Shown: one piece after another, positions 2,867 through 36,840 of the stretch
How the letters are laid out: each line of letters starts with the position of its first letter
Position numbering within the stretch: position 1 is the stretch's first letter
Assembly (NCBI GenBank): GCA_041559855.1
Contig: JBFFCR010000001.1
Location: 1-45,748, forward strand
Direction: 5' to 3'
From: Anaerolineae bacterium
Lineage (GTDB): Bacteria > Chloroflexota > Anaerolineae > JAAYZQ01
Length of the DNA: 45,748 nt
Notes under the pieces: model-generated
Told to the model about the DNA's origin: nothing
Seen by the model: the letters and a program-made list of their open reading frames with translations, nothing else
The model's database searches: none
Position numbers and translations under genes: made by a program

Positions 2867-3868
2867 TCAATCTCCCAGTGTGGCGACCAGCACTGCTTTG
2901 ATGGTATGCAGGCGGTTCTCAGCTTGATCGAAAACGATCGAGTGCTCGGATTCGAATACTTCGTCTGTTACTTCCATGCCGTCGAGCCCAAATTTCCCGT
3001 AGATCTCCTCTCCGATCTTGGTTTCGCGATTGTGGAACGAGGGCAGACAATGCATGACCTTGACTGCTGGATTTCCCGTCATTCTGAGCGCGGACATGTT
3101 CACCTGGTAGGGTCGCAGCAAGTTGATGCGCTGCTCCCAGACAGAGTCGGGCTCGCCCATCGAGACCCAAACGTCGGTGTGAAGAAAGTCGACGTCTTTG
3201 ACCCCTTCAGTGACGTCGTCCGTCAGCAGAAGCTTCGCGCCAGTTGTCGCGGCTATGGCTTGGCATCTCTCCACGAGCTCCTCCTCAGGCCAGAGGTTGG
3301 GCGGCGCGCAGAGCCTGACGTTCATGCCCAGCTTGCATCCACCAACCATCAGTGAGTTGCCCATGTTGTTGCGCGCATCACCCACGTAGCAGTAGGAGAT
3401 CTCGGAGAGTGGCTTGGTGGCGTGTTCCTGCATGGTCAGCATGTCAGCCAAGACCTGGGTGGGGTGGAACTCATTGGTCAGGCCGTTCCAAACGGGCACC
3501 CCTGCGTACTGGGCCAGCTCCTCGACAATCTCCTGCCCAAAGCCACGATACTCGATGCCATCGAATATGCGGCCCAGGACGCGGGCGGTGTCTTTCATCG
3601 ATTCCTTGTGGCCAATCTGCGATCCACTTGGCCCGAGATAAGTCACATGAGCGCCCTGGTCGTAGGCGGCTACTTCGAATGCAACTCTTGTGCGGGTGGA
3701 CGACTTTTCAAAGATGAGGGCGATGTTCTTTCCCGCCAGTCGAGGTTGCTCATAGCCGCTGTACTTGGCTGCCTTGAGTTCAGCTGCTAGTTGGAGCAGG
3801 AACCGAATCTCCTCGGGCGTAAAGTCCAGCAACTTGACGAAGCTGCGATTGCGCAGGTTGAAGGCCAT
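2867..3868 (-). CDS. argF: Ornithine carbamoyltransferase
   Basis: The 333-aa product is near-colinear with enterobacterial ArgI/ArgF as I remember it: [98 protein letters not shown] and VMHCLPSFH. The start has a GGAGG Shine-Dalgarno. Confidence 0.95.
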
Positions 3869-3939
3869 AGTACCTCCTGTTCTACCTCCTTGGTGGAGAT
3901 TGGCGGTTGGCGGACAGCGACTGGCGCTATCTGCGGCCT

Positions 3940-3968
3940 AGTATACCTCAAGTCTGGTGCGAAGGCAA
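3940..3968 (-). promoter_or_regulatory. Sigma-70-like promoter for the argF-pfk-corrinoid protein unit (TTGCCT-17-TATACT)
   Basis: On the minus strand, TTGCCT lies at the complement of 3963-3968, followed by a 17-nt spacer and TATACT at the complement of 3940-3945. This is about 65 nt upstream of the argF ATG. Confidence 0.45.
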
Positions 3969-4131
3969 TATGGAGGCTGGGACCGGACAGCTCCGATGCG
4001 GGCTGTGGCTGCGGGGTACCATCTTTGCGCTCGCGAGGGGCGCGAGCCCGGGTGTCCAAGAGGTTACGGCTTTGAAGGTCGACGCAGTTTATTGCTGCAA
4101 CACAAGGCGAGACTAGGACGTTGGCGGCCTA

Positions 4132-7100: not shown

Positions 7101-9774
7101 GCTTGTAGGCGTACCTGACTCGGCCGGGCATTGCATAGTAGAGCGCGGCAAACTCGAAGGACACGACCTCATCTCGGTAGGACAGCCTGGCCGATTCCGC
7201 AACCTCGACAGAGCGCTGCAATACCGAATCGGTTCCCACCTCGACCGGCTGGTTTGCCACGAGTAATCCGGTGATATACACCGGTGGGGCGTACGGATCG
7301 TCCCAGATCTGGTCGGGGTAGAAGGCGTTGATGCCGTCGACACCCCCGAAGAACATCTCACCGTCGGGTGCAAGGTAGGCTGCCTGCGAGTTGAATTCGT
7401 TGCTCTGCAAACCCTCCAGGTAGGTGTAATTTCTGAAGGTGATGGTCTGCGGGTCGAATCGTGACAAGCCCTGGTTGGTACTCAGCCATAGGTGTACATC
7501 GGTTTCTGCCACTCGTTCTGGCAACACTGCATACACCACGTCATTAGGAAGGCCGTCTTGCTCCCGGTAGTGCGTCCATACACCGGTGGCGGGCTCGAGG
7601 CGTTGCAGGCCATCGCCGTTAGTGCCACACCACACGATGCCGCTTGGGTCCTCATAGACCCAGAGGATCCGTGCATCACTCAGGCTTTCTGGATTATCTG
7701 GGTCGTGGCGGTAGTGGACAAAGGTCTCGGTGGTAGGGTCAAAATGGTCAAGGCCGGTGCCAGTAGCTATCCACAGAGCCCTGTCTCTTCCTGAGAAGAT
7801 GCCCGAGATGACATTGTCGCCCAAGCTGTTGGTGTTGTCTGGGTTGGGTTCGTATTTGTGCACGACGTTACCAGTGCCTGGGTCAAAGCGTGCCAATCCG
7901 ATCCTGTGGAGGCCCAACCACAGATCATCTCCCTCACTGGCTGGGACAATAGCAGAGACGAGCCCAATCTGAGGCGCGACCCGAGGCAGGACGAGCGTGA
8001 ACTCGTAGTTGCTCCAGCCTGCAGGAACCCCTTTGTAGAGGCCCATGCCGGTGCCTACCCAGATCACGCCACCAGGGCCTTCGTGGACGGCGTAGGAGGT
8101 GACGTCGGGCAAGTTAGGATCGATCTCGTAGAAGGAGGATGTGCCGCTAATCCTATCCCAGCGATTCAGGCCAGCTCCAGTGGTAATCCACAAAAGCTGT
8201 GCATGGCCGGCGGCGTCGATCCCTGCCCTTGGAGCATAGATGCGAAAGACCGAGTCATTGCTTCCTCGCTCTTCCGGCGCGGTACCCACTGCGTGGTAAG
8301 GGAACTTTGTCCAAGTAGGATGGTAGAAGCTGATGCCGCCCATGTCGCTGCCCAGCCACATGCCACCCGAGTCATCTTCGTATATCGCGGTGACCGAGTC
8401 GCCACTGAGGGTGCGCGGATTGTCCGGATCGTGTGCATAGTGAGTGAAGCATTCCGTCTGCGGATCGTAGAGGTCGATGCCACCCGCGAAGGTGTGGATC
8501 CAGATAGTGCCCTGACGGTCTTGGTACATGTGCAACACGGCGTTGTGGCTAAGGCCGCAGCGGTCGTCTGGGTCGGCGGAAATGCGAACGATCTCGCCTG
8601 TCTCGGGATCAAGCCGCTCCAGTCCCAGGCGCTCGTAGGTGAGGTCCGGCCTGGCTTCCCCTGAGGCCACCCATAGGTTGCCCTCTTGATCCTCAAGCAG
8701 CGCTCGCACCGTGTTGCCGGAGAATGTGTTGGGATCCTCGGCACTGTAGGGATACGCTGTGAAGTGACCAGTTTCGCGATTGAATTGGTGTAAGCCACCG
8801 AACGTGGTCCCGATCCAGAGGCGCCCTGCTGTGTCCTCGTAGATCCTGGTGGCGTAGGGACTGCGCAGCGACCCGGGGTTGAGCGGTTCCCCGCCATCCG
8901 TGCTCTGGTAGGCATAGCGAACGAAGGATTGGCTATCAGGGTCGTAGCGCACGAGTCCCTCTCCTGTGCCAAACCAGAGGGTGCCGGTGCTATCCTCGTA
9001 TATGGTGTACACCTTGTTGTCGTGCTCGCTCGCTCTCGCTGGGTCGTCGAGGTCATCGCGGAAATAGACAAGGCGATCTGTTTCTGGGTCATACTGGACT
9101 AGGCCAGAACCGTATGTGCCGATCCATAGCCTGCCGACGCTGTCCCCGTAAACAGCACGGATGTTGAGCCCGCCCTGCCTATGGGGATCTTCTATTTTGA
9201 TCGGATAGCGCTGGAAACGATCCATGGCTGGATCGTACCGGTGGAGGACGGCGTCATCGGTGACGAACCAAAGGTTGTCCTCAGGGTCGCGATAGCAGTG
9301 CTGGACCCAGTTCGCGCTGAGGCTATGGGGATCATCGCGATCATGCTCATAGACCCGGAACTGGTACCCATCGTAGCGGTTCAGCCCATCCTGCGTCCCG
9401 AACCACATAAAGCCCCGGCTGTCCTGTGCAATGCAGTTGATCGTGCTTTGAGAGAGGCCATCCTCGATAGTGAGCTGCCGGAATTCTATGCGCCGGGCCG
9501 CGCCTTTGGGGTCTGCTCCTGTATCGAGTAGGGAGGAGACGCTGTGCCCAGCTAGGACAGCGTCGGGATTCGAGGCCGCTCCGATGCCGCCGGTGATGTT
9601 GCCGGAAGTGTCCGATGCGCAGCCTGACATCACGCCCACGACAAGTAGGGAGGCCGTCATCAACCAAGCCAGGCTCTCCTGAACACGCCGGCGCGCTATC
9701 AGTCTGCGACCCACCATTCTTCCCTCGATTGTGGACCTGTGGGTCCGATTCCTACGTCTGTCTGTCTTGATCAT
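4132..9774 (-). CDS. Giant sensor histidine kinase: lipoprotein-like signal, ~15 Reg_prop beta-propeller repeats, Y_Y_Y domain, TM helix, four tandem GAF domains, HisKA_3 (NarL-type) and HATPase_c
   Basis: The N-terminus reads LLVVGVMSGCASD. There are about 15 copies of the [LMIV]W[FILV]GTxxGLxx[YF]D signature, for example MWFGTQDGLNRYDG and LWIGTYGSGLVQYDP. A Y_Y_Y-like region reads VRYAYKLEGFDNDWI...YVFRVKAANADGVW. The TM helix is WWFRGLAALCVVAIAVAAYRF. Four GAF modules each end in A[VI]ENARL[FY]. The H-box is ERQRLARELHDAVTQTLF and the ATPase has ALNNVVKHA...DDGRGF...GLGI. An alternative start is M19 at 9720. Confidence 0.9.
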   Translation of the reverse strand: MIKTDRRRNRTHRSTIEGRMVGRRLIARRRVQESLAWLMTASLLVVGVMSGCASDTSGNITGGIGAASNPDAVLAGHSVSSLLDTGADPKGAARRIEFRQLTIEDGLSQSTINCIAQDSRGFMWFGTQDGLNRYDGYQFRVYEHDRDDPHSLSANWVQHCYRDPEDNLWFVTDDAVLHRYDPAMDRFQRYPIKIEDPHRQGGLNIRAVYGDSVGRLWIGTYGSGLVQYDPETDRLVYFRDDLDDPARASEHDNKVYTIYEDSTGTLWFGTGEGLVRYDPDSQSFVRYAYQSTDGGEPLNPGSLRSPYATRIYEDTAGRLWIGTTFGGLHQFNRETGHFTAYPYSAEDPNTFSGNTVRALLEDQEGNLWVASGEARPDLTYERLGLERLDPETGEIVRISADPDDRCGLSHNAVLHMYQDRQGTIWIHTFAGGIDLYDPQTECFTHYAHDPDNPRTLSGDSVTAIYEDDSGGMWLGSDMGGISFYHPTWTKFPYHAVGTAPEERGSNDSVFRIYAPRAGIDAAGHAQLLWITTGAGLNRWDRISGTSSFYEIDPNLPDVTSYAVHEGPGGVIWVGTGMGLYKGVPAGWSNYEFTLVLPRVAPQIGLVSAIVPASEGDDLWLGLHRIGLARFDPGTGNVVHKYEPNPDNTNSLGDNVISGIFSGRDRALWIATGTGLDHFDPTTETFVHYRHDPDNPESLSDARILWVYEDPSGIVWCGTNGDGLQRLEPATGVWTHYREQDGLPNDVVYAVLPERVAETDVHLWLSTNQGLSRFDPQTITFRNYTYLEGLQSNEFNSQAAYLAPDGEMFFGGVDGINAFYPDQIWDDPYAPPVYITGLLVANQPVEVGTDSVLQRSVEVAESARLSYRDEVVSFEFAALYYAMPGRVRYAYKLEGFDNDWIAAGDRRFVTYTNLPPRDYVFRVKAANADGVWNESGASLSITVVPPVWATWWFRGLAALCVVAIAVAAYRFRVHSVEERARALEHQVASRTEELSTLNAIAKVVSASLDLEQILDGALDKTLDVMGREAGGVYLLQQASPESPNQQGMLRLVAHRGIEDSLLGNIDDLAVGEGFSGRVIQTGEPLLVADLAADERLTRMAVKDHGYRSLAIAPLVSRGRVLGSLFVMTCSCVSQGQQELELLSSIAGQVAVAIENARLYADTQKRLAQITALQETSTAVASTLQLDELLHLITEQATALFQADGGILNLVDWERSEDEAVACVGSMASVIGTRTPLHSGLSGWIARHNQPAICLDPKSDDRVNQPGLTELELTLGRAIQNAAGVPLVTKGQVIGSLVLLDKLAGRDQFNRRDLKLLVAFANQAATAIENARLFKAEQRRAEQFRVIGQVGRRITSLLDVDSVLNQVASLLQRSFGYDHVAIALVEDGFAVYKVGAGELWKQPGFRFSPERLKVGKEGIAGWVAAHREPLLVPDVSLEPRYVSMEGSRTRSELALPIAVKDRIIGVLDVQSNHLNAFDASDVVVLQSLADQAAVAIENARLFDAEQRRAEQFRVISEVGTHVVSSLTLAELLEQVARLIQGAFNYYLVEIGLVETSALVFKTRASRALGDGFQSFSLPLNEGSITGWVAARGEPLIVPDVALEPRYVKVTSTETRSELAVPMKVQDQIIGVINVESEHLDAFDQSDLTVLQSLANQAAIAVENSRLYEQAQRLAVMEERQRLARELHDAVTQTLFSASLIAEAIPDLWESDQEEGRQLLAELRQLSRGALAEMRTLLLELRPAALVEANLRDLLRQLGEAVAGRTGIPVTVAVDDLCPLPQEVHVALYRIAQEALNNVVKHAQASRVEVLLHCLDNGAQRPSSPQLRLCISDDGRGFDLAHIPSERLGLGIIRERAQAIGANLAIESRLGAGTQIKVVWQAR

Positions 9775-24561: not shown

Positions 24562-24708
24562 CTGCTGGTGAGCAGGCTACTGACAGATGGAATTCTGCTC
24601 GCAAACGGTGAGTTGTCGATTCGGTGTTGACGTGCCCAAGATGCGTGGGCCGGCCTAACAGGGGCGGGCAGTCAACTATCAACAAACTGCCCATGTAAGG
24701 GAGAGCGG

Positions 24709-26031
24709 ATGCCTGACCTGGAAGTCATAGGCGGCGGCTTGGCGGGAAGTGAGGCTGCGTGGCAGGCAGCTGAACGGGGGCTAACCGTGGCTCTCTACGA
24801 GATGCGGCCGCGGCAGACCACGCCCGCTCATGTTGGCGGCTCTTTGGCTGAGCTGGTCTGCTCAAACTCGCTGGGTTCCAACTTGACCGATCGCGCTCCT
24901 GGGTTATTGAAGGAGGAGCTACGCCGCCTGGGCTCGCTGGTGATCGAATGTGCTGATGCGACTGCAGTCCCTGCAGGAGGCGCTCTTGCGGTCGACCGTG
25001 AGGCGTTCGCGCAAATGGTGACCGCGCGTATCGCGGGGCACCCCCGCATCACGGTGCATCGACGGGAAGTGACAACCATCCCTCAGCGGATGGCAGTGGT
25101 TGTGGCCACAGGTCCCCTTACCTCTCCAGCACTTGCTGGCGGAATCGCCCAGTTGACGGGCTCTTCCTACCTTTACTTCTATGATGCGATGGCGCCCATT
25201 GTCGCGGCAGAGTCCATTGATATGTCAGTTGCTTTTCGGGCCAGTCGGTATGGTACTGAAGGGGAGGCAGGTGACTATATCAACTGCCCCATGAGTCAGT
25301 CCGAGTATGAGCAGTTTGTTGACGCGCTGCTAAGCGCCAAGACCATTCCTTTGCGTGACTTTGAGTTGGAGGATCCTCGCTTCTTTGAGGCTTGTCTGCC
25401 TGTTGAAGTGCTGGCTCGCCGGGGACAGAAAGCGCTGGCGTTTGGTCCCTTGAAGCCGGTCGGCTTGACAGACCCGCGCACGGGTCTGCGGCCCTACGCG
25501 GTTGTGCAGCTGCGCCAGGACAACCACTCAGCTACCCTATACAATCTTGTAGGTTTTCAGACCAACCTTGCGTGGGGCGAGCAGGAGCGAGTCTTCCGAC
25601 TTGTTCCGGGACTCGAGCGCGCAGAGTTCGTGCGTTTCGGACAAATGCATCGAAACACCTTCATCAATGCCCCGGCTTTGCTCTTGCCGACAATGCAGTA
25701 TCGGGAGAGAGCAGATCTCTTTTTCGCCGGACAGATCACGGGCACGGAGGGTTACGTGGGATCTGTGGCAGGCGGGTTTGTGGCTGGGGCAAATGCTGCT
25801 CGGCTGGCAATGGAACTTGCTCCAGTCTCTTTTCCCGAAACCACGATGATCGGAGCCCTTTGTAGCTATGTATCGAGAGCGGAGCCACGCGGATTTCAGC
25901 CGATGAAGGCCAACTTTGGCCTGTTACCCCCGCTTGCGCCCCCTGTGCGCAAGAAGCGAGAGCGCTATGCAGCCTATGCCCGGCGCGGCTTGGCTGATCT
26001 GGGCCACTTTATCGCTGCGCAATGCCTCTAG
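24709..26031 (+). CDS. trmFO: Methylenetetrahydrofolate--tRNA-(uracil54-C5)-methyltransferase (FADH2-oxidizing)
   Basis: The sequence [34 protein letters not shown]...[10 protein letters not shown]...[19 protein letters not shown] at 440 aa is a typical TrmFO/Gid layout. Confidence 0.92.
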
Positions 26032-26148
26032 CTCCCTCTCGGCCCTCCGCTACGCGCAACGCTACCAAGATTGGGAGCGCGATACTACCGTCTACTTTTC
26101 CTGTCGGCGTCTCGAGTGAAAGGGGCACGATTTTCCAGGAGATCGGCG

Positions 26149-26805
26149 ATGTCTTATGTGTTTATGAGAGTACTGGAATCAGCCCCGCACCGGTACGAGG
26201 CCGGGATGCGCCTACTGACCTTGGGGCGACTGGCAAAGGTGCGCCAGGATATCGCAGCGCAGGTGAACGCAGGTGACCGGGTCCTTGAAATTGGCTGTGG
26301 CACCGGCACTCTTGCCGTGCTGTTGGCGGAGAAGGGCGCTAGCGTGGTGGCTATTGACATCTACCCGGCGATGGTGCGCGCGACTTCGCGGCTTGTGCGC
26401 GAGGCTGGTTTGGACGAACTGGTCACGGTGGAAGAGATGGGCGCGGTTGACCTGGACACTGCCTTCGAAGACGCATCCTTCGATGTAGTGGTGAGCGCAC
26501 TAGTCTTTAGCGAGCTGTCCCAGGATGAGACAGAGTATACACTGCATGAGTGCTGGCGAATTCTGCGCCCCAGTGGCACTCTACTGATCGCTGACGAGGT
26601 GTTGCCATCGTCCGTGCTGGGCCGATTCGGAGCGCATCTCTTGAGGGTGCCCTTTGCTGTTGCAGCGTTCGTCCTGACTCAGACCACAACTCACCGAGTC
26701 GCTGGGCTGGAGGGGCTGGTCGCCAGGGCTGGTTTCCGAATTGTCAGAGTCGCTGCCTATCTGGCGGGCACGATGAAACTGATCGCTGGGGAGAAGGTAG
26801 CATGA
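26149..26805 (+). CDS. Class I SAM-dependent methyltransferase, partner of the HgcAB-like protein (CpaM-like by recollection)
   Basis: I place the start at MSYVFMRVLESAPHRYE, with AGGAGA 6 nt upstream. The SAM motif I is RVLEIGCGTGTLAVLLAEKGASVVAIDI, motif II is FDVVVSALVFSEL, and a later motif is LRPSGTLLIADE. Its stop overlaps the next ATG (ATGA at 26802-26805). Confidence 0.85.
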   Translation: MSYVFMRVLESAPHRYEAGMRLLTLGRLAKVRQDIAAQVNAGDRVLEIGCGTGTLAVLLAEKGASVVAIDIYPAMVRATSRLVREAGLDELVTVEEMGAVDLDTAFEDASFDVVVSALVFSELSQDETEYTLHECWRILRPSGTLLIADEVLPSSVLGRFGAHLLRVPFAVAAFVLTQTTTHRVAGLEGLVARAGFRIVRVAAYLAGTMKLIAGEKVA

Positions 26806-27935
26806 GTCGCATTGTCGATTGGCTGATGGCGATGACTCAGACGGTGTTTCGGCTGTTCCCGTTTCCGACACGCACTGGGTTACGTACTATCGGTTCGCCG
26901 GATCGTGATGCCCCGGTGCTTGTCACCTGCAATTTCGATCTGACAGTACGCCGTGTGATCAGGGCTCTGCAAGGGCTGGACTGCCATCTGCTGGTTGCTG
27001 ATAGCCGGGGCATCAATGTCTGGTGTGCAGCGGGCGGCGGCAAGCTTACGGCGCACTCGGTCAGCTCGGTTGTCAAGACAACTCGCATCGCCGAGAAAGT
27101 GAATCACCGGACGCTGATCTTACCACAGCTCTCTGCCCCGGGGATCGACATCGCGCGGGTCGAGGAGGAAACAGGTTGGCACTGCAGGTTCGGGCCCACT
27201 TATGCACAGGACATCCCGGCCTATTTGGGAGCGAATCTCTGCAAGACAGATGGCATGCGCCGGGTCACGTTCCCGCTGGCTGCACGGCTGGAGATGGCTG
27301 TGATGTGGGCGGGTTTGCTGTCCGTTCTAGTCGTGATCCCCGTTGCCATCGTCAATTGGCGCCTGCTGCCTGGTGTCCTGGCGATGATCTGGGGTTTCGC
27401 CCTCTTTCTGTTTGCGTTCTTTCGCCAGGTGTTGCGTTTTGCTCCTGGTCCCACCGGTCTGGCCAAGGTTTTGCTCTTGGGTTTGGTCGGGGCAGCAGGC
27501 GTGGTAGCTTACGGACTCGTGCCGGGCAATTGGTCAGCGGGTTCGATCGTGGGCTGGTGTCTGGGAATCGTGGGCGTGGCTCTAGTCCTGGGCTTTGATC
27601 TGGCAGGTACCAGTCCGCTCCTGGCAGGGGAGACGGTGGCCTACTATGCACGGAGATGGCCACAGGTACTCAAGCTCTGGGCTCTGATCGGCTACGACTT
27701 GGAGATGCCATTCACGTTGGCGGTGGATGGGGGGCAGTGCAATGGGTGCGGCGCGTGTGTAGAAGTGTGCCCCAAAGGGGTTTTCGAGCTATGCCGCTCG
27801 GGTGCTATGCTCAGGTCTCGGGTCTTGCACCTGAAGGAGTGCGTGCAGTGCACGGCATGTGTCAAGCAATGTCCTGAGCACGCGATTCTGGCCGAGCCTC
27901 CGATCAAGACATTCGAAGTGCTAGAGGCTGTGTGA
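26802..27935 (+). CDS. Fused HgcA-like corrinoid membrane protein plus HgcB-like 2x[4Fe-4S] ferredoxin (HgcAB-like fusion)
   Basis: The N-terminal ~150 aa read GSPDRDAPVLVTCNFDLTVRRVIRALQGLDCHLLVADSRGINVWCAAGGGKLT...HRTLILPQLSAPGIDIARVEEETGWHCRFGPTYAQDIPAYL...MRRVTFPLAARLE. This is colinear with the HgcA/CFeSP corrinoid domain and includes the NVWCAAG cap-helix Cys motif. Four to five hydrophobic helices follow at about aa 155-285. The C-terminus has CNGCGACVEVCP and CVQCTACVKQCP. Confidence 0.8.
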   Translation: MSRIVDWLMAMTQTVFRLFPFPTRTGLRTIGSPDRDAPVLVTCNFDLTVRRVIRALQGLDCHLLVADSRGINVWCAAGGGKLTAHSVSSVVKTTRIAEKVNHRTLILPQLSAPGIDIARVEEETGWHCRFGPTYAQDIPAYLGANLCKTDGMRRVTFPLAARLEMAVMWAGLLSVLVVIPVAIVNWRLLPGVLAMIWGFALFLFAFFRQVLRFAPGPTGLAKVLLLGLVGAAGVVAYGLVPGNWSAGSIVGWCLGIVGVALVLGFDLAGTSPLLAGETVAYYARRWPQVLKLWALIGYDLEMPFTLAVDGGQCNGCGACVEVCPKGVFELCRSGAMLRSRVLHLKECVQCTACVKQCPEHAILAEPPIKTFEVLEAV

Positions 27936-27990
27936 GGCTTTGCGCCGTCAAGCTTGGTTTCGCGCGCGGCGAAATACCCGAGAGGAACTT

Positions 27991-28956
27991 GTGGGCAAAG
28001 AGAGCGAGTATGTAGTCGAGACGAGCAACCTAACTCGAATCTTCAAGACCGCCAAGGCTGTTGACGGCCTCAGCCTTTCGGTGCGCCGTGGCGAGATCAT
28101 CGGTTTGGTGGGGCCTGACGGGGCGGGCAAGACGACGACCATTCGCATGTTGTGCGCTATCATGGATCCCACTGAAGGCTCGGCCCGTGTGGCAGGACTT
28201 GATACGGTCCGCGAGCCAGAGCGGATCAAGCGGCTCATCGGCTACATGGCGCAACGCTTCAACTTGTACGGCGATCTATCGGTGACAGAGAATCTCGATT
28301 TCTTTGCGGACGTTTTCCAGGTGCGCGGGCGTGAGCGACGCGAGCGTAAGGAACGGCTGCTTCGGTTTGCTCAACTCACCGAATTCGGAGCGCGACGGGC
28401 GGCCCATCTTTCAGGGGGCATGCAGAAGAAGCTGGCGTTAGCGTGTACGCTGATCCACCGGCCTGAGATCATTTTTCTGGATGAGCCCACGACCGGCGTG
28501 GACCCGGTCAGTCGCCGCGAGTTCTGGGACATTCTAGGCGAGCTGCACATGGAGGGCATCACGATCCTGGTTAGCACGCCGTATATGGACGAGGCGGAGC
28601 GTTGTTCCAGGGTCGCGCTGATGTATCAGGGGCGGATCATAGTCTGCGATGAACCGGAGCGGATCAAAGGCATGGTCGCTGGTGATCTGGTGGAGCTGAG
28701 GTCCTCCGATCTACGCCTCGCCGAGCAGATCGTGGCGGGGCTGGAGGGTGTCTTTGAGGTACAGACATACGGCGATCTCTTGCATGTGTTCGTCGATGAT
28801 CTGCCCTCGCGCCATTCATCGCTGGTGGCTGCCCTGGATGCTGCAGGTGTGCAAGTCATCGATCTACGGCAAACCCGACCGCGAATGGAGGAAGCCTTTG
28901 TATCGCTGGTGCGCAGGGAGATTGCGGCTGAGCAATCGGCTGGCGAGAGTGGGTAG
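27991..28956 (+). CDS. ABC transporter ATP-binding protein (ABC-2/DrrA/YbhF-type)
   Basis: Walker A is GLVGPDGAGKTTT, the signature is LSGGMQKKLALA and Walker B is IIFLDEPTTGVD. I prefer a GTG start at 27991 with AGAGGA upstream. The track TTG at 27940 is possible. Confidence 0.9.
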   Translation: MGKESEYVVETSNLTRIFKTAKAVDGLSLSVRRGEIIGLVGPDGAGKTTTIRMLCAIMDPTEGSARVAGLDTVREPERIKRLIGYMAQRFNLYGDLSVTENLDFFADVFQVRGRERRERKERLLRFAQLTEFGARRAAHLSGGMQKKLALACTLIHRPEIIFLDEPTTGVDPVSRREFWDILGELHMEGITILVSTPYMDEAERCSRVALMYQGRIIVCDEPERIKGMVAGDLVELRSSDLRLAEQIVAGLEGVFEVQTYGDLLHVFVDDLPSRHSSLVAALDAAGVQVIDLRQTRPRMEEAFVSLVRREIAAEQSAGESG

Positions 28957-28967
28957 GTGACGGTGAC

Positions 28968-29972
28968 TTGAAGGAAGAGAAGAGGAATCTCGAAGAGCAT
29001 ACTAGAGGCCACCAGGTATCGGTGAGTCAGCCTGCCATTCAGGTGTTAGAACTAACCAAGATCTTTGGCAGTTTCACGGCTGTGGATCGGGTGAGCTTCA
29101 TAGTGAACCGTGGGATGATCTTTGGCTTCCTTGGACCCAACGGCGCGGGAAAGACAACAACCATACGTATGCTGTTGGGATTGCTCAAGCCCACTTCGGG
29201 CGCGGCAAGCGTACTGGGCTTTGACATCGTGAGGCAGACCAATGAGATCAAGGGGCGTATCGGCTACATGTCCCAGCAGTTCAGTCTATACGATGATTTG
29301 ACGGTCGATGAGAATCTGAGCTTCTACGGTCGCACATATGGCGTGCGAAGATGGCGCTTGCAGGAACGGAAGAGATTCGTGCTGGAGACGGCTGGGTTGG
29401 TAGGGCGCGAACGAGAGCTGACACGGAACCTGTCAGGTGGATGGAAGCAGCGGCTGGCTTTGGGTACCGCGATCATCCATGAGCCGGAGATGCTATTCCT
29501 GGATGAGCCAACTGCTGGGATGGATCCTATCTCCCGCCGGGCCTTCTGGGATCTGCTTTATCATCTGGCCGACGCGGGTACGACCATTCTGGTCACCACC
29601 CACTATATGGACGAGGCGGAGCACTGCCAGCGCCTGGCCTTCATCCAGCGTGGGCGCATCGCCGTACAGGGCTCGCCGGCACTCATCAAAGAGACCAAGA
29701 TGCGCGGGGAAGTGTTGGAGATCGACTGCGGGGAACCGGCCACTGCGGTCCGGCTCCTTCGTGAGATGGGGGTCTTTGAGGAAGTGGCACTGTATGGGGC
29801 ACTGGTCCATGCGGTGGCCTTGGATGTAAGGGTGCTAAGGTCGGAGATTGCCGCTCAGCTTCAATCTGCGGGTGTGGAAGTGCGGACGATGGATGTCATT
29901 GCCCCGTCGCTGGAGGATGTGTTCATTTCGAGCGTGCGCGCACCATCAGGTCACAATGGATCAACGGCCTAG
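28968..29972 (+). CDS. ABC transporter ATP-binding protein (ABC-2/DrrA/YbhF-type), paralogue of the preceding gene
   Basis: Walker A is GFLGPNGAGKTTT, the signature is LSGGWKQRLALG and Walker B is MLFLDEPTAGMD. The exact start is uncertain: TTG at 28968 or a downstream GTG. Confidence 0.9.
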   Translation: MKEEKRNLEEHTRGHQVSVSQPAIQVLELTKIFGSFTAVDRVSFIVNRGMIFGFLGPNGAGKTTTIRMLLGLLKPTSGAASVLGFDIVRQTNEIKGRIGYMSQQFSLYDDLTVDENLSFYGRTYGVRRWRLQERKRFVLETAGLVGRERELTRNLSGGWKQRLALGTAIIHEPEMLFLDEPTAGMDPISRRAFWDLLYHLADAGTTILVTTHYMDEAEHCQRLAFIQRGRIAVQGSPALIKETKMRGEVLEIDCGEPATAVRLLREMGVFEEVALYGALVHAVALDVRVLRSEIAAQLQSAGVEVRTMDVIAPSLEDVFISSVRAPSGHNGSTA

Positions 29973-29991
29973 GACTGCGCCGGGGAGACTG

Positions 29992-31359
29992 ATGAAACGA
30001 CGAATTGTCATTGGGGCGGTGCTACTCGTAGTGGCAGCGATTGTTGTAGGGGGCTGGTGGTACGCAAGCCAAAACCCCTCGGCGTGCTCGTGGATTCGGA
30101 GCGAGTTCGAGAAAGCCATCGATGAACTTGGGCTGGGGCCCGAGCAAGAGACTCAGGAGATTGCAGCCTCAGGCTTTATAGAGGCCCAAAAGGTCTCGGT
30201 AAGTACTGATGTCGGAGGGCGCATCGTGGCTCTCTACGGCAGCGAGGGAGAGCAAGTAGGTCAGGGCGACGTGCTCGTGGAGTTGGATAGCTCGTTGCTG
30301 CTCGCTCAGATAGAGATGGCGGAGGCAGATCTTGAACTGGCAGAAGCCACGCTTGCTTTGGTGCAGGCTGGAGTACGGGATGAGACCCTGGCCCATGCAG
30401 AGGCCCAGGTTGCTCAGGCTGAAGCGGCACGAGAAGCGGCCCGAGTCGCGTGGTCGGACGCTCAGGCCATGCTCGCGAATCCCCAGGAACTGGAGCTAGC
30501 TATGACAGCTGCCCGGGCACAGGTAAGTGTGCTGAGTTTCCAAGTGCTACAAGCGCAAGCTGTGGCCAACTCAGCACAGGAGGGTCGCAATCTGTCGGAT
30601 GAGCTTCTCTCGATGCTGGAGAACTCGGCCCCGTTAGTGGCACCTGGTGTGCTGGCCGCCGCGGAGTATGAGCAGGCTTTGGCAACCTACAGGTCATGGG
30701 CCGCCTGGACCGGTGTTGATCAAGCTGAAGTGGCTCTTGAAGGGGCCAAACGGTATCTGGAAGAGCTGAATAGACAGAGAGTGGGTCCTCTTGATCTCGA
30801 GGCCGAGGCTCATGCGGCTGAGGCTCAATATGAGGTGGCAAATGCAGCTGTTGAACTGGCCGTGGCTCATCTGGAGGGTCTCAAGCTGGGCGCTAGCCCC
30901 GAGCAGATTGCGGCTGCTAAAGCGCAGGTTCAAGTGGCTCGCACCGGACTGGCGGCCCTCCAGGTGCAGCTGGCAAAGCTGACGCTGAAAGCACCCATCT
31001 CAGGCTTGGTGCTGGAATGCCCAGTGCATACAGGCGAGCTTGCTACGCCTGGAGTGCCGCTTGTGACCCTAGCCGACCTTGACGAGCTTACCCTTACCAT
31101 CTATGTCGCAGAGGATGAGGTGGGCAGGATCCAGTTGGGCCAGCCGGTCTCGGTTACAGTCGATGCCTACCCCGAACGTGTGTTTTCGGGAGCTGTCACC
31201 TGGATCTCTAACCAGGCAGAGTTCACGCCAAAGAACGTGCAGACACAGGAGGAGCGTGTGAGCATGGTGTTTGGCGTGGAGGTTGGGTTGCCAAATCCTG
31301 ATCATGCACTCAAACCAGGGATGCCGGCTGATGCGATCTTACCCGAGACGGCACGGTAG
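29992..31359 (+). CDS. HlyD/YbhG-family periplasmic adaptor (membrane fusion protein) with a long coiled-coil hairpin
   Basis: I place the start at MKRRIVIGAVLLVVAAIVVGGWWY (TM anchor), with GGGGAGA upstream. A lipoyl-like half reads GGRIVALYGSEGEQVGQGDVLVELD. A coiled coil of about 230 aa is rich in Ala, Glu and Gln. The C-terminal part reads APISGLVLE...FTPKNVQTQEERVSMVFGVEV...LKPGMPADA. Confidence 0.88.
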   Translation: MKRRIVIGAVLLVVAAIVVGGWWYASQNPSACSWIRSEFEKAIDELGLGPEQETQEIAASGFIEAQKVSVSTDVGGRIVALYGSEGEQVGQGDVLVELDSSLLLAQIEMAEADLELAEATLALVQAGVRDETLAHAEAQVAQAEAAREAARVAWSDAQAMLANPQELELAMTAARAQVSVLSFQVLQAQAVANSAQEGRNLSDELLSMLENSAPLVAPGVLAAAEYEQALATYRSWAAWTGVDQAEVALEGAKRYLEELNRQRVGPLDLEAEAHAAEAQYEVANAAVELAVAHLEGLKLGASPEQIAAAKAQVQVARTGLAALQVQLAKLTLKAPISGLVLECPVHTGELATPGVPLVTLADLDELTLTIYVAEDEVGRIQLGQPVSVTVDAYPERVFSGAVTWISNQAEFTPKNVQTQEERVSMVFGVEVGLPNPDHALKPGMPADAILPETAR

Positions 31360-31380
31360 TCAGAATATCGAGGACTATAC

Positions 31381-32721
31381 ATGAAACGTCGTATCATAGT
31401 CCTGCCGTTCCTCCTACTGATCGGCGCCGCAGTAGTTGGGGGTTGGTGGTGGGCTCGGGAATCACCTGAGCAGGCCACGCAGTTCCTGATAGCTGGTGGC
31501 CTTGAAGCCAACCGTGCGCAAGAGTTCATCGCGCTAATCGGTGGTGAGGCAGAAGCTAGCAAAAGTGACGTCTTGCTTGTCTCCGGATCCCTTGAGGGTG
31601 AGGAAGTCTGCATCGTGGCCGAGTTCGGTGGCCTGATCGTGGGCGCTTATGCTGATACAGGGGATGCGGTGGCGTCAGGGCAGGTGCTGGTCAAGATCGA
31701 CGAAAGCCTACTAAGAGCCCAATTGGCCGAGGCCGAGGCTGGTGTGGAGGTCGCCGAAGCGAATCTGGCTACTGTACGGGCTGGCACCCATCCTGCTGAG
31801 ATCATGGCCGCACGAGCAAGCCTGCATCAAGCTGTTGCGGAACGAGCCGCTGCCAGGATCGGTTGGGATGACGTTCAAGCGATTCTTGACAACCCCCAGG
31901 AGATCGAGGCCCAGCTGATCGAGGCGCAGACTGGTGCAGAGTTGGCGGCGGTGCAGATCGAGCAGGCCGAGGCTGAACTTGCACTGGCCATCGTCGAGCG
32001 GGACCAATACCGAGCTCGCGGGACGCTGGAGGAGAAGAAGCTGTATGCCATTTATGACTATCAGGTAGAGGCAGCCCAAGCGGCCTTGGACGGCGCAAAG
32101 GAGAACCTTGCAGGGGCAAGGAAGACCGCGGCGGCACTAGAGGCATTGCTGGCGAATCCACTGGCCCTCGTCAGCCAGGTTCACGAAGCGGAAGCCTTGT
32201 TCAACATTGCCGCTGCACATGTGGGGGTTGTAGCAGCGAGACTGCACGAATTAAGAGCAGAGGCATCGCCCGAGGCGGTGGCAGTGGCCGAAGCGCAGGT
32301 CTCACAGGCTCGAGCATCTGCAGCGCTGCTCCATGCGCAGATCGAGAAGATGACATTGCGTTCGCCGGTCGATGGTGTGGTGACCAGTTGCTCTGTGCAT
32401 CCTGGTGAAGCGGCTGTCTCTGGAATGACTCTATGCACCGTTGCGGTGCTAGACGAGGTAACCCTTACGATCTATATTTCCGAAGACGAGTTGAATCGCG
32501 TGTATTTGGGTCAGCGAGTCGAGGTTCAGGTGGACTCGTTCCCCGACCGGGCATTTTGGGGGACAATCTCCTATATCTCGCAGCAGGCAGAATTCACACC
32601 GAGGAACGTCCAGACGCGAGAGGCGAGGGTAAATATAGTGTTTGCAGTAAAGGTTCGCTTACCCAATCGAGAGCATCTCCTGAAGCCAGGGATGCCCGCG
32701 GATGCGGTCATTCGCCACTAG
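31381..32721 (+). CDS. HlyD/YbhG-family periplasmic adaptor, tandem paralogue
   Basis: The sequence MKRRIIVLPFLLLIGAAVVGGWWW...GQVLVKIDESLL...SPVDGVVTS...FTPRNVQTREARVNIVFAVKV...LKPGMPADA has the same architecture as the preceding gene. Confidence 0.88.
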   Translation: MKRRIIVLPFLLLIGAAVVGGWWWARESPEQATQFLIAGGLEANRAQEFIALIGGEAEASKSDVLLVSGSLEGEEVCIVAEFGGLIVGAYADTGDAVASGQVLVKIDESLLRAQLAEAEAGVEVAEANLATVRAGTHPAEIMAARASLHQAVAERAAARIGWDDVQAILDNPQEIEAQLIEAQTGAELAAVQIEQAEAELALAIVERDQYRARGTLEEKKLYAIYDYQVEAAQAALDGAKENLAGARKTAAALEALLANPLALVSQVHEAEALFNIAAAHVGVVAARLHELRAEASPEAVAVAEAQVSQARASAALLHAQIEKMTLRSPVDGVVTSCSVHPGEAAVSGMTLCTVAVLDEVTLTIYISEDELNRVYLGQRVEVQVDSFPDRAFWGTISYISQQAEFTPRNVQTREARVNIVFAVKVRLPNREHLLKPGMPADAVIRH

Positions 32722-32749
32722 AGACCTGCGGGGCGAGAGCCCAGTGAAC

Positions 32750-33019
32750 TTACTCGTCGTCCAGGTATTCCAGCTCGCCAGGATCCTGCAGAGACCCCTT
32801 GTGTTCAGTCAGCAGTTCCTTTGCATCGGCCGCATAGCTTTGCGGAACGAGTAGACGTACGCGACCGAGGCCGTCCACCGTGATGCCGTACACCAGGGTC
32901 GCCGCGTCGTATTTCAGAAGTACAGGTATGCCAGCTGCCTCAAGCTTGCTCTTGAATATCTGCGCAAGGTCCCAACCCTGGCACGCATGAATGCACACCA
33001 GATCATCATCTTTTGTCAC
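32750..33019 (-). CDS. DUF2007-like small protein (putative signal-transducing fold)
   Basis: The 89-aa product reads LVCIHACQGWDLAQIFKSKLEAAGIPVLL...RLLVPQSYAADAKELL, a pattern typical of DUF2007 as I recall it. Confidence 0.6.
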   Translation of the reverse strand: MTKDDDLVCIHACQGWDLAQIFKSKLEAAGIPVLLKYDAATLVYGITVDGLGRVRLLVPQSYAADAKELLTEHKGSLQDPGELEYLDDE

Positions 33020-33076
33020 AGTCTTGCCCCCTTTTTGCTAGTAACACACATGCCCTCGTTGCCAGAGTCCGACGGC

Positions 33077-33565
33077 CTAGAGCAGGAAAGAGATCATGGC
33101 TGCTGTAATCCGTGCAACGGCTGGGCTGATCATCAAGCCAACGCCGAGGACAACACCACTCAGCAATGCCGCTACCGCCAGGTTGCCCTTCCTCAGCTCC
33201 TCGATCTCATCGATCCCTCGGGTCAGGAAGGAGAAGATCAATAGCGCCAGGCCCAGAGCCAGGACGGCAAGAACCAGGCCGAGAGCAATCTGCAAAGCGC
33301 CCGTCGCCAATGCCCGTAGATAGACTTCCCGTCCTGCATCCCAGGCCGCCGGATCCACCGCCAACGCAGGGCGGAGGATGATGGCAACTGCGATGAGCGC
33401 GGACCCAAGTACAAGCCCGACCGCTACATTCGCTCTGCGCAGCTCTTCCGTCTCATCCAACCCTCGAGTGAACCACTGTAGGAAGTTGAAAGACAGAAAT
33501 GCAGCTACCGCGCTGAGTATGACCGCAACCACCAGTTGCGCAAGCCCCAACAGCAAAAGTACCAT
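33077..33565 (-). CDS. DUF350-family membrane protein (two tandem DUF350 repeats)
   Basis: The internal repeats are FLQWFTRGLDETEELRRANVAVGLVLGSALIAVAII and FSFLTRGIDEIEELRKGNLAVAALLSGVVLGVGLMI. I place the start at MVLLLLGL (33565), with AAGGAGG 4 nt upstream. Confidence 0.75.
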   Translation of the reverse strand: MVLLLLGLAQLVVAVILSAVAAFLSFNFLQWFTRGLDETEELRRANVAVGLVLGSALIAVAIILRPALAVDPAAWDAGREVYLRALATGALQIALGLVLAVLALGLALLIFSFLTRGIDEIEELRKGNLAVAALLSGVVLGVGLMISPAVARITAAMISFLL

Positions 33566-33609
33566 GTCGCCTCCTTGGACCCTGTCCTGTGGCAATAGCT
33601 TCCCTCACC

Positions 33610-33638
33610 AGTATAGCACACCGGAACGAAAATGGCAA
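33610..33638 (-). promoter_or_regulatory. Sigma-70-like promoter for the DUF350 gene (TTGCCA-17-TGcTATACT)
   Basis: On the minus strand, TTGCCA lies at the complement of 33633-33638, followed by a 17-nt spacer ending in TG and TATACT at the complement of 33610-33615. Confidence 0.55.
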
Positions 33639-33828
33639 TGGCAACACACGATGGCTGTTTGCCTCATGTCCGGAAAAGATCTTCGTATAACCATAGCGAC
33701 TGCGATATCTACTCTGCGACGAACCTCAACGACATAAAGTTATGCGAAGTTTGTTGTTGCTCGGCGGTGCAGCTTGCTCTGTTGACGCCTGTTCCTAGCT
33801 TTCCCGGAGTGAGTGCAGACAGTGATCT

Positions 33829-33857
33829 TTGACGGCAAACGCGTTCGGGGGTATACT
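33829..33857 (+). promoter_or_regulatory. Sigma-70-like promoter for the GH3 gene (TTGACG-17-TATACT), predicting a leaderless mRNA
   Basis: TTGACG is at 33829-33834, followed by a 17-nt spacer and TATACT at 33852-33857. The ATG at 33865 starts 8 nt after the -10 element and has no Shine-Dalgarno. Confidence 0.55.
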
Positions 33858-33864
33858 GTCGACC

Positions 33865-36840
33865 ATGAGAGTGAGAGGCAAGGGCGTGTATACGATCAAG
33901 AGTGGTTCCAATACCTGGACTGCTCGTGTTCTAAAGTGTGTGATGTTGCTAGGCATGTTTTCGCTTCTGGCTTTGCCCGGGCGCATCGATGCACTGATGC
34001 TAGCGATGACGCAATCCTCCTCAGCTGCCGACGAGGACCCATGGTTAGACGATACACTCGCTCACATGACAACAGCGGACAAGGTGGGCCAGCTGTTTTT
34101 GATTACCTTTCCTGGCAATGACATCGGCGCGGGTTCGGAGATTGCACAGCTTGTGCAAATACTGAGAGTTGGCGGGGTCATCCTCTCTCCGGAGAACGAG
34201 AATTTTGGGAACGGCGCTTTTGCTCCATCACAGGTTCTGTCATTGACTTCCGGGCTTCAGCAACTCGCGTTCAGCGAGTCATTTCCAGTCACGTACACCC
34301 TTAGTGTACCTATCACAGTGACCGTGCCGGTGGGGGAGACTCCGTCGCCCTCAGACCGTGAGACGATCACGGCAACGACCACCCTGACCTACACCGACGT
34401 TATCACACGTCCTCCACAGGGGATTCCATTGCTCACGGCCGTTCTGCAAGAGGGAAACGGGTATCCGTACACATCGTTGCGCGGTGGTTTCACGGACTTG
34501 CCCAGCAACATGGCGATTGGCGCGACGTGGAACGACGAGTATGCGCAGGCAATTGGCACGATAGTCGGCCAGGAACTGTGGGCAGTGGGGATCAATGTCC
34601 TTCTCGGACCATCGTTGGACGTACTTAGTGAGCCCCGACCAGGTCAGGGCGGCGACCTCGGTATCCGCGTGTTTGGCGGTGATCCCTATTGGGTCGGCCA
34701 GATGGGTCAAGCGTACGTCAGAGGTGTGCACCTAGGAAGCGACTGGCACGTGGCGACAGTGGCAAAACATTTGCCGGGATTGGGTGCAAGCGATCGGAGC
34801 CTGCAAGACGAAATAGCCACGGTAGACAAGTCTCTTCAGGATCTCAAGCTGATTGAGCTACCGCCGTTCTTTTCTGTGACCCATGGAGATCCGATCACTG
34901 ATACAACAGATGCGCTGATGACAGCTCATATTCGTTACAGGGGCTTCCAGGGCAGCATCCGATACGTCACACAGCCCATCAGTCTAAATGCACAGGGTCT
35001 ACAGGAAATCCTGGCCCAACCAGAGCTTGTTCCGTGGCGAGGGGCAGGGGGTGTGCTGGTGAGTGACTCGCTGGGATTGCCTGCAGTGCGACGTCACTAC
35101 TCGCCAGAGCTGGAGCAGTTCCCGCACAGGCAGATTGCGCTGGACGCTTTCATGGCAGGCAACGATCTACTGACGCTTTCACAGTTCTCGCTTAGTGATT
35201 CATGGGAGGATCATCTAGCGAACGTCACCGACACAGTCTTGTTCTTTCAAGCACGGTATGACGAGGACGAGACCTTCCGATCCCGTGTCGACCAGTCAGT
35301 GCGACGGATACTGACCCTCAAGCGGCGCATATGCAGAGAGTTTACGTTGGAGGGCTGTACAGGAAGCCTTGATGGTGACAGTGAGACCGGCGCTGCGAAT
35401 GGCACCGTGGCTCAGATCGCTCAGAACGCTGTGACCCTGCTGTATCCAGCGACTGAGGAGCTTGTTGTCCGTCTACCTCGGCCTCCACGCCAGGATGAGA
35501 GTATCCTGATCTTCACTGACAGCAGAGAGGCCCGCGAGTGTGACCGCTGCCTGCCCTTCTATTTGCTAAATCCTATGGCGCTGGAGGACACAATCCTGAA
35601 GCTGTATGGCCCCGAGGCCACCGGTCAGGTGGATCCGGAGCGGATCGAGTCACACAGTTTCGCTGAGCTACACGCTTTCTTGCAGTACGGGTCCCCTGAC
35701 CTGACGGCGATCCTTAGTGAAGCTGATTGGATAGTGTTCGCGATGCTCGACTATTCGCCTGAGGCCTACCCCAGCTCGATGGCGCTGAAAGAGTTCCTGC
35801 GAGAGTGGACGATCGGGCAAGCTACGCAGAATTTCATTGTCATGGCGCACGAGGCACCGTACTACCTTGACACCACGGAAGTGAGCAAACTGGGAGCATA
35901 TTACGGGCTGTACGGCAAGGGCCAAGCCTCTGTTGATTCGGCAGCACGCGTGCTATTTCATGAATACCTGCCCACTGGACTGTCGCCAGTGACTGTGGAC
36001 GGTGTGGGCTACGATCTTGGCAAGCAGCTCCTGCCAGATCCGGAGCAGATTATCTCAGTGCTCTGGGCGGACCAACCACCCGAGGTGGAAGGGACTCCGC
36101 AGGCCGTCAAGTTGGAGCTCGGAGACCCTCTCCGGCTTCGCACAAGTCTCATCCGTGACCGCAATGGGAACGCTGTGCCGGATGGAACACCTGTCACGTT
36201 CAACTATGTGTACGTGGACGAAGGACTGGGCGGACAGGTAGAAGCGATGACAGCGGATGGCATTGCTGAGGCAGTGCTCACGTTGGAGCATGCAGGAGTC
36301 CTGGAGATCAGAGCTACAAGCGATCCTGCGCAGAACTCACTGCCCTTGCAGGTGATAAACCAAGGCGAAACCACCGAGATCCTAACTCCCACGCCAACAC
36401 CAACTCCCACTTTCACACCGACTGCAACACCAACGCCCACCTCTACCCCGACTCCGACTCCAACCTTGACGCCCACGGCGACGCCAAGCCCAACCGCAGA
36501 ACCAGAGATACCTCCTCCCCCCGTGCCAGAGTCGCGCGTTCAGTGGGCAGACCTGATGTGGGCACTGGTAGGCGCAACGGCAGCAGGGGGACTGGTAGCA
36601 ATAGCAAGCAAAAACGCGCATGTGACGAGTCGCATGGTGAACCCAGCCTCGCGGGCGGCCTTGCTCAGTGGCGCCTGCGGGTTGGCTGGATACATCTACT
36701 ACGGCCTTGGGCTTCCGGGTAGTACTGTCATTGACGGGCTCGCGCCCGGTCTGCGTGGGCTGGTTGTGGGTTCTGCATGCGGGTTGGTACCGCTGCTCCT
36801 GGTCATGCCCTTCATCCGTCTGGGTGACAGAAACAGATGA
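33865..36840 (+). CDS. Glycoside hydrolase family 3 (NagZ/beta-hexosaminidase-like) exported enzyme with Pro/Thr linker and C-terminal multi-helix membrane anchor
   Basis: The signal-like N-terminus is VMLLGMFSLLALPG. GH3 motifs are DKVGQLFLITFPG, LRVGGVILSPEN, VAKHLPGLGASDR and GGVLVSDSLGLPAV. A large middle region is followed by the linker TPTPTPTPTFTPTATPTPTSTPTPTPTLTPTATPSPT and then three hydrophobic helices. The start at 33865 is chosen from the promoter geometry. Confidence 0.85.
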   Translation: MRVRGKGVYTIKSGSNTWTARVLKCVMLLGMFSLLALPGRIDALMLAMTQSSSAADEDPWLDDTLAHMTTADKVGQLFLITFPGNDIGAGSEIAQLVQILRVGGVILSPENENFGNGAFAPSQVLSLTSGLQQLAFSESFPVTYTLSVPITVTVPVGETPSPSDRETITATTTLTYTDVITRPPQGIPLLTAVLQEGNGYPYTSLRGGFTDLPSNMAIGATWNDEYAQAIGTIVGQELWAVGINVLLGPSLDVLSEPRPGQGGDLGIRVFGGDPYWVGQMGQAYVRGVHLGSDWHVATVAKHLPGLGASDRSLQDEIATVDKSLQDLKLIELPPFFSVTHGDPITDTTDALMTAHIRYRGFQGSIRYVTQPISLNAQGLQEILAQPELVPWRGAGGVLVSDSLGLPAVRRHYSPELEQFPHRQIALDAFMAGNDLLTLSQFSLSDSWEDHLANVTDTVLFFQARYDEDETFRSRVDQSVRRILTLKRRICREFTLEGCTGSLDGDSETGAANGTVAQIAQNAVTLLYPATEELVVRLPRPPRQDESILIFTDSREARECDRCLPFYLLNPMALEDTILKLYGPEATGQVDPERIESHSFAELHAFLQYGSPDLTAILSEADWIVFAMLDYSPEAYPSSMALKEFLREWTIGQATQNFIVMAHEAPYYLDTTEVSKLGAYYGLYGKGQASVDSAARVLFHEYLPTGLSPVTVDGVGYDLGKQLLPDPEQIISVLWADQPPEVEGTPQAVKLELGDPLRLRTSLIRDRNGNAVPDGTPVTFNYVYVDEGLGGQVEAMTADGIAEAVLTLEHAGVLEIRATSDPAQNSLPLQVINQGETTEILTPTPTPTPTFTPTATPTPTSTPTPTPTLTPTATPSPTAEPEIPPPPVPESRVQWADLMWALVGATAAGGLVAIASKNAHVTSRMVNPASRAALLSGACGLAGYIYYGLGLPGSTVIDGLAPGLRGLVVGSACGLVPLLLVMPFIRLGDRNR
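36385..36530 (+). repeat. Low-complexity Thr-Pro coding repeat (linker) inside the GH3 gene
   Basis: Imperfect ACN-CCN codon repeats encode (T/S/A)-P units, followed by PEIPPPPVP. Confidence 0.9.

Follow-up and report, generated by a model that had tools for sequence, protein, structure and literature searches.

The E. coli ybhGFSR operon is regulated by CecR. With this system (cecR/ybiH-ybhGFSR) the loci described below share one or more TetR regulators, one or more HlyD-family adaptors, two nucleotide-binding domains (NBDs) and separately encoded permeases of family PF12698. In E. coli YbhF, NBD2 was reported to be catalytically degenerate, and asymmetric roles of the two NBDs were proposed (PMC13739795). 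Fused HgcAB proteins, such as Q8U2U9 of Pyrococcus furiosus, combine a CdhD-like corrinoid domain carrying a cap-helix Cys with transmembrane helices and a 2x[4Fe-4S] tail, and the tested organisms with such a fusion make no methylmercury (PMC10087281; bioRxiv 10.1101/2022.11.21.517362, citing Podar 2015, Gilmour 2018). No account of a CpaM partner of fused HgcAB, or of a link to an ABC-2/HlyD exporter, was found in the literature. Here, 45,748 nucleotides of an Anaerolineae bacterium (the window: assembly GCA_041559855.1, contig JBFFCR010000001.1, positions 1 to 45,748) were analysed, in which six genes at 26149-32721 place a CpaM methyltransferase and an HgcAB-like fusion next to two ATP-binding cassette (ABC) ATPases and two HlyD adaptors.

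These six genes are likely to be the remainder (the 3' two-thirds) of a TetR-regulated, YbhGFSR-like ABC-2 exporter operon with an embedded CpaM/HgcAB-like pair, from which the permeases were deleted and for which an orphan permease pair encoded elsewhere now serves. The cluster and its flanks are arranged as follows:

24709..26031, + strand: trmFO (NF003739, 647 bits), the left flank of the deletion
26032..26148, no strand: the deletion scar, a 117-nt spacer (blastn and alignments against relatives)
26149..26805, + strand: CpaM, corrinoid protein-associated class-I S-adenosylmethionine (SAM) methyltransferase (NF043040)
26802..27935, + strand: HgcAB-like fusion (NF043039), in ATGA overlap with CpaM (-4)
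27940 or 27991..28956, + strand: ABC1, DrrA-type ABC ATPase with a degenerate H-loop (ABC_tran and DrrA1-3_C)
28968 or 29022..29972, + strand: ABC2, DrrA-type ABC ATPase with a canonical H-loop (ABC_tran and DrrA1-3_C)
29992..31359, + strand: HlyD1, membrane-anchored protein of the periplasmic-adaptor (membrane fusion protein, MFP) type (HlyD_D23, HlyD_3)
31381..32721, + strand: HlyD2, the second adaptor paralogue (HlyD_D23, HlyD_3)
32750..33595, - strand: conserved convergent right flank, a DUF2007-like gene (32750-33019) and a double-DUF350 membrane protein (33077-33595) (Pfam)

The open reading frame (ORF) layout agreed with an earlier note on this DNA in its six same-strand genes and their spacing: 4 or 55 nt between HgcAB-like and ABC1, 11 or 65 nt between ABC1 and ABC2, 19 nt between ABC2 and HlyD1, 21 nt between HlyD1 and HlyD2, and 28 nt from the end of HlyD2 to the end of the convergent gene at 32750. 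The later starts of ABC1 (27991) and ABC2 (29022) are those annotated in sister metagenome-assembled genomes (MAGs). The domain matches of both ATPases bore out their assignment to the DrrA type, and hydropathy the statement that the HgcAB-like fusion is the sole polytopic membrane protein of the cluster. The absence of an ABC-2 permease was upheld and extends beyond the cluster: family scans found none among the large ORFs of the 45.7-kb window, and none of the 23 matches to PF12698 in the whole source genome (a MAG of 608 contigs and 4.1 Mb, 85.7% complete, with many contigs <3 kb) lies on the window contig C1. A TetR regulator is also absent from the window.

For comparison, 60 relatives were searched with ABC2 and the 10-20 kb around the matches were compared (G, L and C numbers designate genomes, loci and contigs). 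Of 61 genomes of the class, 45 keep the ABC1-ABC2(-HlyD) tandem. In at least 10 related Anaerolineae genomes the orthologous locus has TetR regulators (TetR1 and/or TetR2) immediately upstream, together with two or three ABC-2 permeases that are bona fide PF12698 proteins. The base module, TetR2-permC-ABC1-ABC2-HlyD1-HlyD2 without an HgcAB-like gene, was found in G014, G017, G011, G003, G009 and G037, and as permC-ABC1-ABC2-HlyD1-HlyD2 in G035; an extended module with TetR1-permA-permB added upstream is present in G027 and G040. The CpaM/HgcAB-like pair follows permC and precedes ABC1-ABC2-HlyD1-HlyD2 in G013, G012, G007, G021, G004, G010 and G002 (with TetR1-permA-permB where the contig reaches), follows permA-permB in G006 and G001, stands between permB and TetR2-permC in G028 and lies upstream of permA in G041. 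The full locus of the family can be written TetR1-permA-permB-(TetR2-permC)-CpaM-HgcAB-like-ABC1-ABC2-HlyD1-HlyD2.

The permeases were lost from the window by deletion. In the same-genus genome G001 (contig C125) the order is TrmFO-TetR-permA-permB-CpaM-HgcAB-like; in the window, TrmFO (83% identical to that of G001:C125) is followed by 117 nt and CpaM. By blastn, window positions 24705-26000 correspond to positions 573-1868 of the G001 locus (L154) and 26148-27909 to 5471-7229, while L154 1869-5470 (~3.6 kb) has no counterpart in the window. Approximately 50 nt of the spacer (~26069-26121) align with the last codons and the stop of permB in G001, G006 and G002. A lineage-specific deletion of ~3.6 kb therefore took TetR1, permA and nearly the whole of permB, of which the final ~50 nt remain, and left cpaM 117 nt behind trmFO.

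An assembly artefact at the junction was considered and rejected. Contigs of seven further MAG assemblies and one Logan contig encode the identical HgcAB-like protein. Five long sister contigs of separate MAG assemblies (16-21 kb, 99.8% identical) stay collinear with the window across the junction, and the gene spacing is the same on two shorter ones. Since five independent contigs read through the same junction, the deletion is real and fixed in the sampled population. Within the scar, positions 26038-26104 differ from the five sister contigs at 17 sites and by one indel, a local divergence of ~25% in sequences otherwise ~99.8% identical over 21 kb.

G020 provides a second case of permease loss, independent and precise: it lacks the 1.13-kb permC of its congener G014 (L151 8970-9012 versus L139 7760-8891). 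The remainder, TetR2-ABC1-ABC2-HlyD1-HlyD2, is intact, and the orphan permease pair described below is the only one that this genome kept. No permC orthologue was found in G000, G001, G006 or G020.

The missing permeases might instead have been translocated and lie on sequence absent from the incomplete MAG. This is improbable: the permease locus of the same-genus relative is contiguous here and a deletion scar marks its place, a translocation would need a separate event that none of the relatives shows, and no match above 43% identity was found in the 4.1 Mb, although the assembly is fragmented and many of its contigs are short. The best match to the cluster permeases is on contig C506 (1-1960), at 39-43% identity. 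C506 was rejected as the site of the missing orthologues, as its 39-42% identity compares with ~80% among the cluster permeases of different genera (G001 versus G013).

The C506 genes belong to another pair. They are orthologous (76-82%) to a pair on G001:C33 (L172 1047-3306). This orphan ABC-2 permease pair (orphA/orphB) was found in 20 of 23 family genomes and lies convergent to an FGGY sugar kinase gene. No ABC ATPase or HlyD gene adjoins it in the eight loci examined; the nearest ABC ATPase is that of G006, on the other strand at a distance of ~4 kb. Contig C146, at whose end lie TetR, an ATPase and the N-terminal 11 aa of a permease, was considered as the contig that C506 continues and was rejected, because the pair lacks an adjacent ATPase in G001 and seven other genomes. 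The earlier note had proposed a genome search for orphan ABC-2 permease pairs, and the pair on C506 is such a pair.

Judged from gene content, the pair on C506 is the most likely partner in trans of ABC1/ABC2. The ABC1/ABC2 heterodimer would dock on orphA/orphB and energise this pair from a distance, and HlyD1 and HlyD2 would be EmrA-like adaptors with their anchors in the cytoplasmic membrane, in a cell without a TolC-type outer-membrane factor. After the loss of TetR1, expression would probably be read through from trmFO or be otherwise derepressed. The repeated, precise loss of operon permeases with retention of the orphan pair suggests that the permease sets are interchangeable and that a single ATPase heterodimer can work with several of them.

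The proteins of the methylation pair were identified with NCBIfam models. CpaM scored 268.9 bits against NF043040 (cut-off 180) and the HgcAB-like fusion 385 bits against NF043039 (cut-off 285). The fusion did not reach the cut-off of the true HgcA model NF040863 (162 bits, cut-off 275) or of NF040864 (46.6 bits, cut-off 99). With matches to CdhD and Fer4 domains, it joins in one protein a corrinoid domain of the CdhD type, four transmembrane helices and a ferredoxin tail (2x[4Fe-4S]), the same architecture as in P. furiosus Q8U2U9; hydropathy gave four strong transmembrane segments at residues 166-267, and two CX2CX2CX3C motifs are present. Its cap-helix reads NVWCAAGGGK, with two extra Gly relative to the canonical N(V/I)WC(A/S)(A/G/S)GK (motif list from PMC10087281). 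The scores under cut-off, the variant motif and a ferredoxin that is fused and not separate set it apart from true mercury-methylating HgcA/HgcB. In 80 loci from many phyla (L001-L080), obtained by an HgcAB-like scan of GTDB species genomes, CpaM mostly stands directly 5' of the HgcAB-like gene. From these sequence features, the fusion is predicted to be a membrane-bound corrinoid/Fe-S methyltransferase component that acts with CpaM, and not a transporter channel.

The earlier note had offered two explanations for the missing permeases: that they are encoded elsewhere, which the orphan pair on C506 makes plausible, or that the ATPases use a non-canonical membrane partner, for which the HgcAB-like transmembrane domain was proposed, so that methylation and export would be physically coupled without any ABC-2 permease. 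The second explanation did not hold up and is now barely credible. Apart from the fusion, the interval indeed encodes no polytopic membrane protein, and the fusion adjoins ABC1 in several genomes, but the same orthologue coexists with two or three canonical permeases per locus in at least 10 relatives, its membrane region has no similarity to any ABC-2 permease family in the family scan, and it has four strong transmembrane segments, not six. Many relatives have the exporter with permeases and without HgcAB-like, 71 of 73 loci in other phyla have the pair and no ABC genes, and the permease-less state is a derived deletion. Likewise, the proposal that a permease-less system represents a new architecture was not sustained: orthologous loci normally carry permeases and TetR, and the absence of channel genes deleted at this locus is no sign of a new kind of transporter, the operon being that of an ordinary exporter resembling a drug pump.

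Several variants of the methylation genes were observed. A Thermoanaerobaculales MAG (L044) carries two CpaM/HgcAB-like pairs in tandem (613-2282 and 3867-5566). In two Anaerolineales MAGs (L053 9248-10870, L054 6190-7812), a single 540-aa reading frame joins CpaM to an HgcA-like corrinoid/transmembrane protein that lacks the ferredoxin tail. This CpaM::HgcA fusion lies two genes from a differently ordered exporter, TetR-ATPase-perm-perm-ATPase-HlyD; the intervening genes encode an F420H2-dependent quinone reductase-like protein and a patatin in L054, and a patatin and a TetR in L053. An additional class-I SAM methyltransferase, whose N-terminus is short and hydrophobic, lies between HgcAB-like and ABC1 in G013 (L137 7255-7917) and G006 (L141 ~4581-5216) and just upstream of ABC1 on a short contig of G019 (L153 ~278-733); in G007 a 679-aa protein without a Pfam match occupies the position between HgcAB-like and ABC1.

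Both ATPases matched best the DrrA subfamily model TIGR01188 (~270 bits, under the cut-off of 312). Walker A, Walker B and signature motifs are present in ABC1 and ABC2, and the LSGG of ABC1 is intact. The H-loop of ABC1 (residues 213-218) reads STPYMDEAE, with His replaced by Pro. The 24 orthologues checked all share this change, and ABC2 retains the His (TTHYMDEAE). This combination points to a putative obligate asymmetric NBD heterodimer of degenerate ABC1 and canonical ABC2, with one degenerate ATP site.

The adaptors share ~41% identity and each has one N-terminal transmembrane anchor by hydropathy. Their best NCBIfam match is PRK03598 (YbhG-like), but with 157-166 bits both remain under the equivalog cut-off of 393; the precomputed Pfam matches include Beta-barrel_YknX. 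Unusually long coiled coils had been noted in both adaptors; that of HlyD2 is supported by an AlphaFold2 model (predicted local distance difference test score 77.8), in which a helical hairpin region spans residues 109-322. The hairpin is of a known type, as the top PDB matches of the model were EmrA (4tko), EmrAB-TolC (8zar) and MacA (3fpp), with EmrA/MacA E values of 1e-19 to 1e-17; Spr0693 (5xu0) was also among the structural matches. A search with the TolC/OEP family (PF02321) gave no match in the source genome or in 21 of 22 relatives, the exception being one short contig of G012, and a control search matched 7 diderm genomes. Lacking a TolC/OEP family protein, the adaptors would act as in monoderms and not in a TolC-type tripartite pump.

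The four transporter genes could also be a functionless relic, that is, a pump recently inactivated and not yet degraded, with only CpaM/HgcAB-like in use. The cluster has lost its own permeases, the within-species changes in ABC2, HlyD1 and HlyD2 number 7 non-synonymous versus 6 synonymous (tiny numbers), and no promoter was detected upstream. On balance a relic is unlikely. All six surviving genes, including the four transporter ORFs at full length, are intact in the window and open in the five long sister contigs, with the same gene calls in the shorter contigs where they reach. The ATPase motifs are also intact. Tajima relative-rate tests of the window against G001, the same-genus relative that keeps its permeases, were non-significant for ABC2 and HlyD1 with five outgroups, and thus gave no sign of acceleration. 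The independent lineage G020 also retains an intact permease-less cluster, and the family-wide orphan permease pair without its own ATPase is an obvious partner.

The reading of the cluster as an operon remainder served by the orphan pair therefore remains the preferred one, with several points that weigh against it. If the deletion happened only recently, as it may have, neither the intact ORFs nor the unaccelerated rates would tell much about function. A scan of 24600-33900 found no promoter-like site in the 117-nt trmFO-cpaM spacer, and no convincing terminators within the cluster. Contig C506 is cut inside orphA, so the orphan status of the pair in the source genome rests on synteny with relatives, and we infer the partnership of ABC1/ABC2 with it from gene content only. 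Finally, the fragmented and incomplete state of the MAG leaves some room for permeases on unassembled sequence.

The linkage of the ABC/HlyD genes to the HgcAB-like pair, for which the earlier note had proposed a synteny comparison, is real within one Anaerolineae family and essentially absent outside Anaerolineae. Among 13 related genomes with an HgcAB-like protein above cut-off, at least 9 have the gene in or beside the exporter operon; in G040 and G043, whose HgcAB-like proteins are of a different clade, it lies outside. Across the 80-locus set, ABC/HlyD genes stand 3' of HgcAB-like only in a few Anaerolineae loci, and outside Anaerolineae the exporter is linked to the pair in 2 of 73 loci. 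The embedding of the pair in a YbhGFSR-like operon across this family, and in a few genomes of other families, is mildly new. The genes downstream of the pair show no pattern across phyla. The gene just upstream encodes a TetR (9/74), an ArsR-type regulator (4/74) or a DsbA/thioredoxin (3/74), and the recurrence of TetR and ArsR fits an inducible, detoxification-like role.

It may tentatively be proposed, as a conjecture more doubtful than not, that in Anaerolineae CpaM/HgcAB-like and the ABC-2/HlyD exporter under TetR control are coupled in function: the pair would methylate a toxic compound at the membrane, perhaps a metalloid or a xenobiotic, and the exporter would expel the product. Relative to the exporter, the pair occupies at least five positions (between permC and ABC1, between permB and ABC1, between permB and TetR2-permC, upstream of permA, and two genes off in L053 and L054), and such a number of arrangements across several families would reflect selection for linkage and not one accidental insertion.

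The right flank is conserved as well: DUF2007-like and double-DUF350 genes also follow HlyD2 in at least eight family genomes, namely G013, G007, G002, G021, G020, G005, G014 and G011, and may belong to the same functional neighbourhood.

The puzzle of a permease-less exporter is explained by a derived deletion in one species, and for annotators the membrane domain of HgcAB-like proteins is not to be read as a channel. Fused HgcAB-like proteins are widespread, and their embedding in a TetR-regulated efflux operon is a concrete clue to function, to which the frequent TetR and ArsR genes upstream of the pair in other phyla add another. Functional coupling, if true, would be the first functional handle on these proteins.

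Compared with known systems, the window holds the DrrA/YbhF-type NBDs and the HlyD adaptors of a YbhGFSR-like exporter and lacks the operon permeases, the TetR regulator (both deleted) and the TolC-type partner, the last in keeping with a lineage without TolC/OEP. As reported for NBD2 of YbhF, one NBD appears catalytically degenerate, here in the H-loop of ABC1 (His to Pro). The family differs from YbhGFSR in further respects: the NBDs are two separate genes and not fused; the adaptors number two, each of ~450 aa and with a hairpin as long as that of EmrA; permeases come first in the gene order, then ATPases, then adaptors; up to three permeases are present, with a distant orphan pair in addition; and the CpaM/HgcAB-like pair is embedded in the operon. 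The monoderm exporters YknWXYZ of B. subtilis and Spr0693-0694-0695 of S. pneumoniae likewise use HlyD/MFP adaptors without an outer-membrane channel, but these have MacB-type (FtsX) permeases, not ABC-2 permeases, and a single adaptor. The exporter itself is a variant of the YbhGFSR type, and fused HgcAB proteins were already known.

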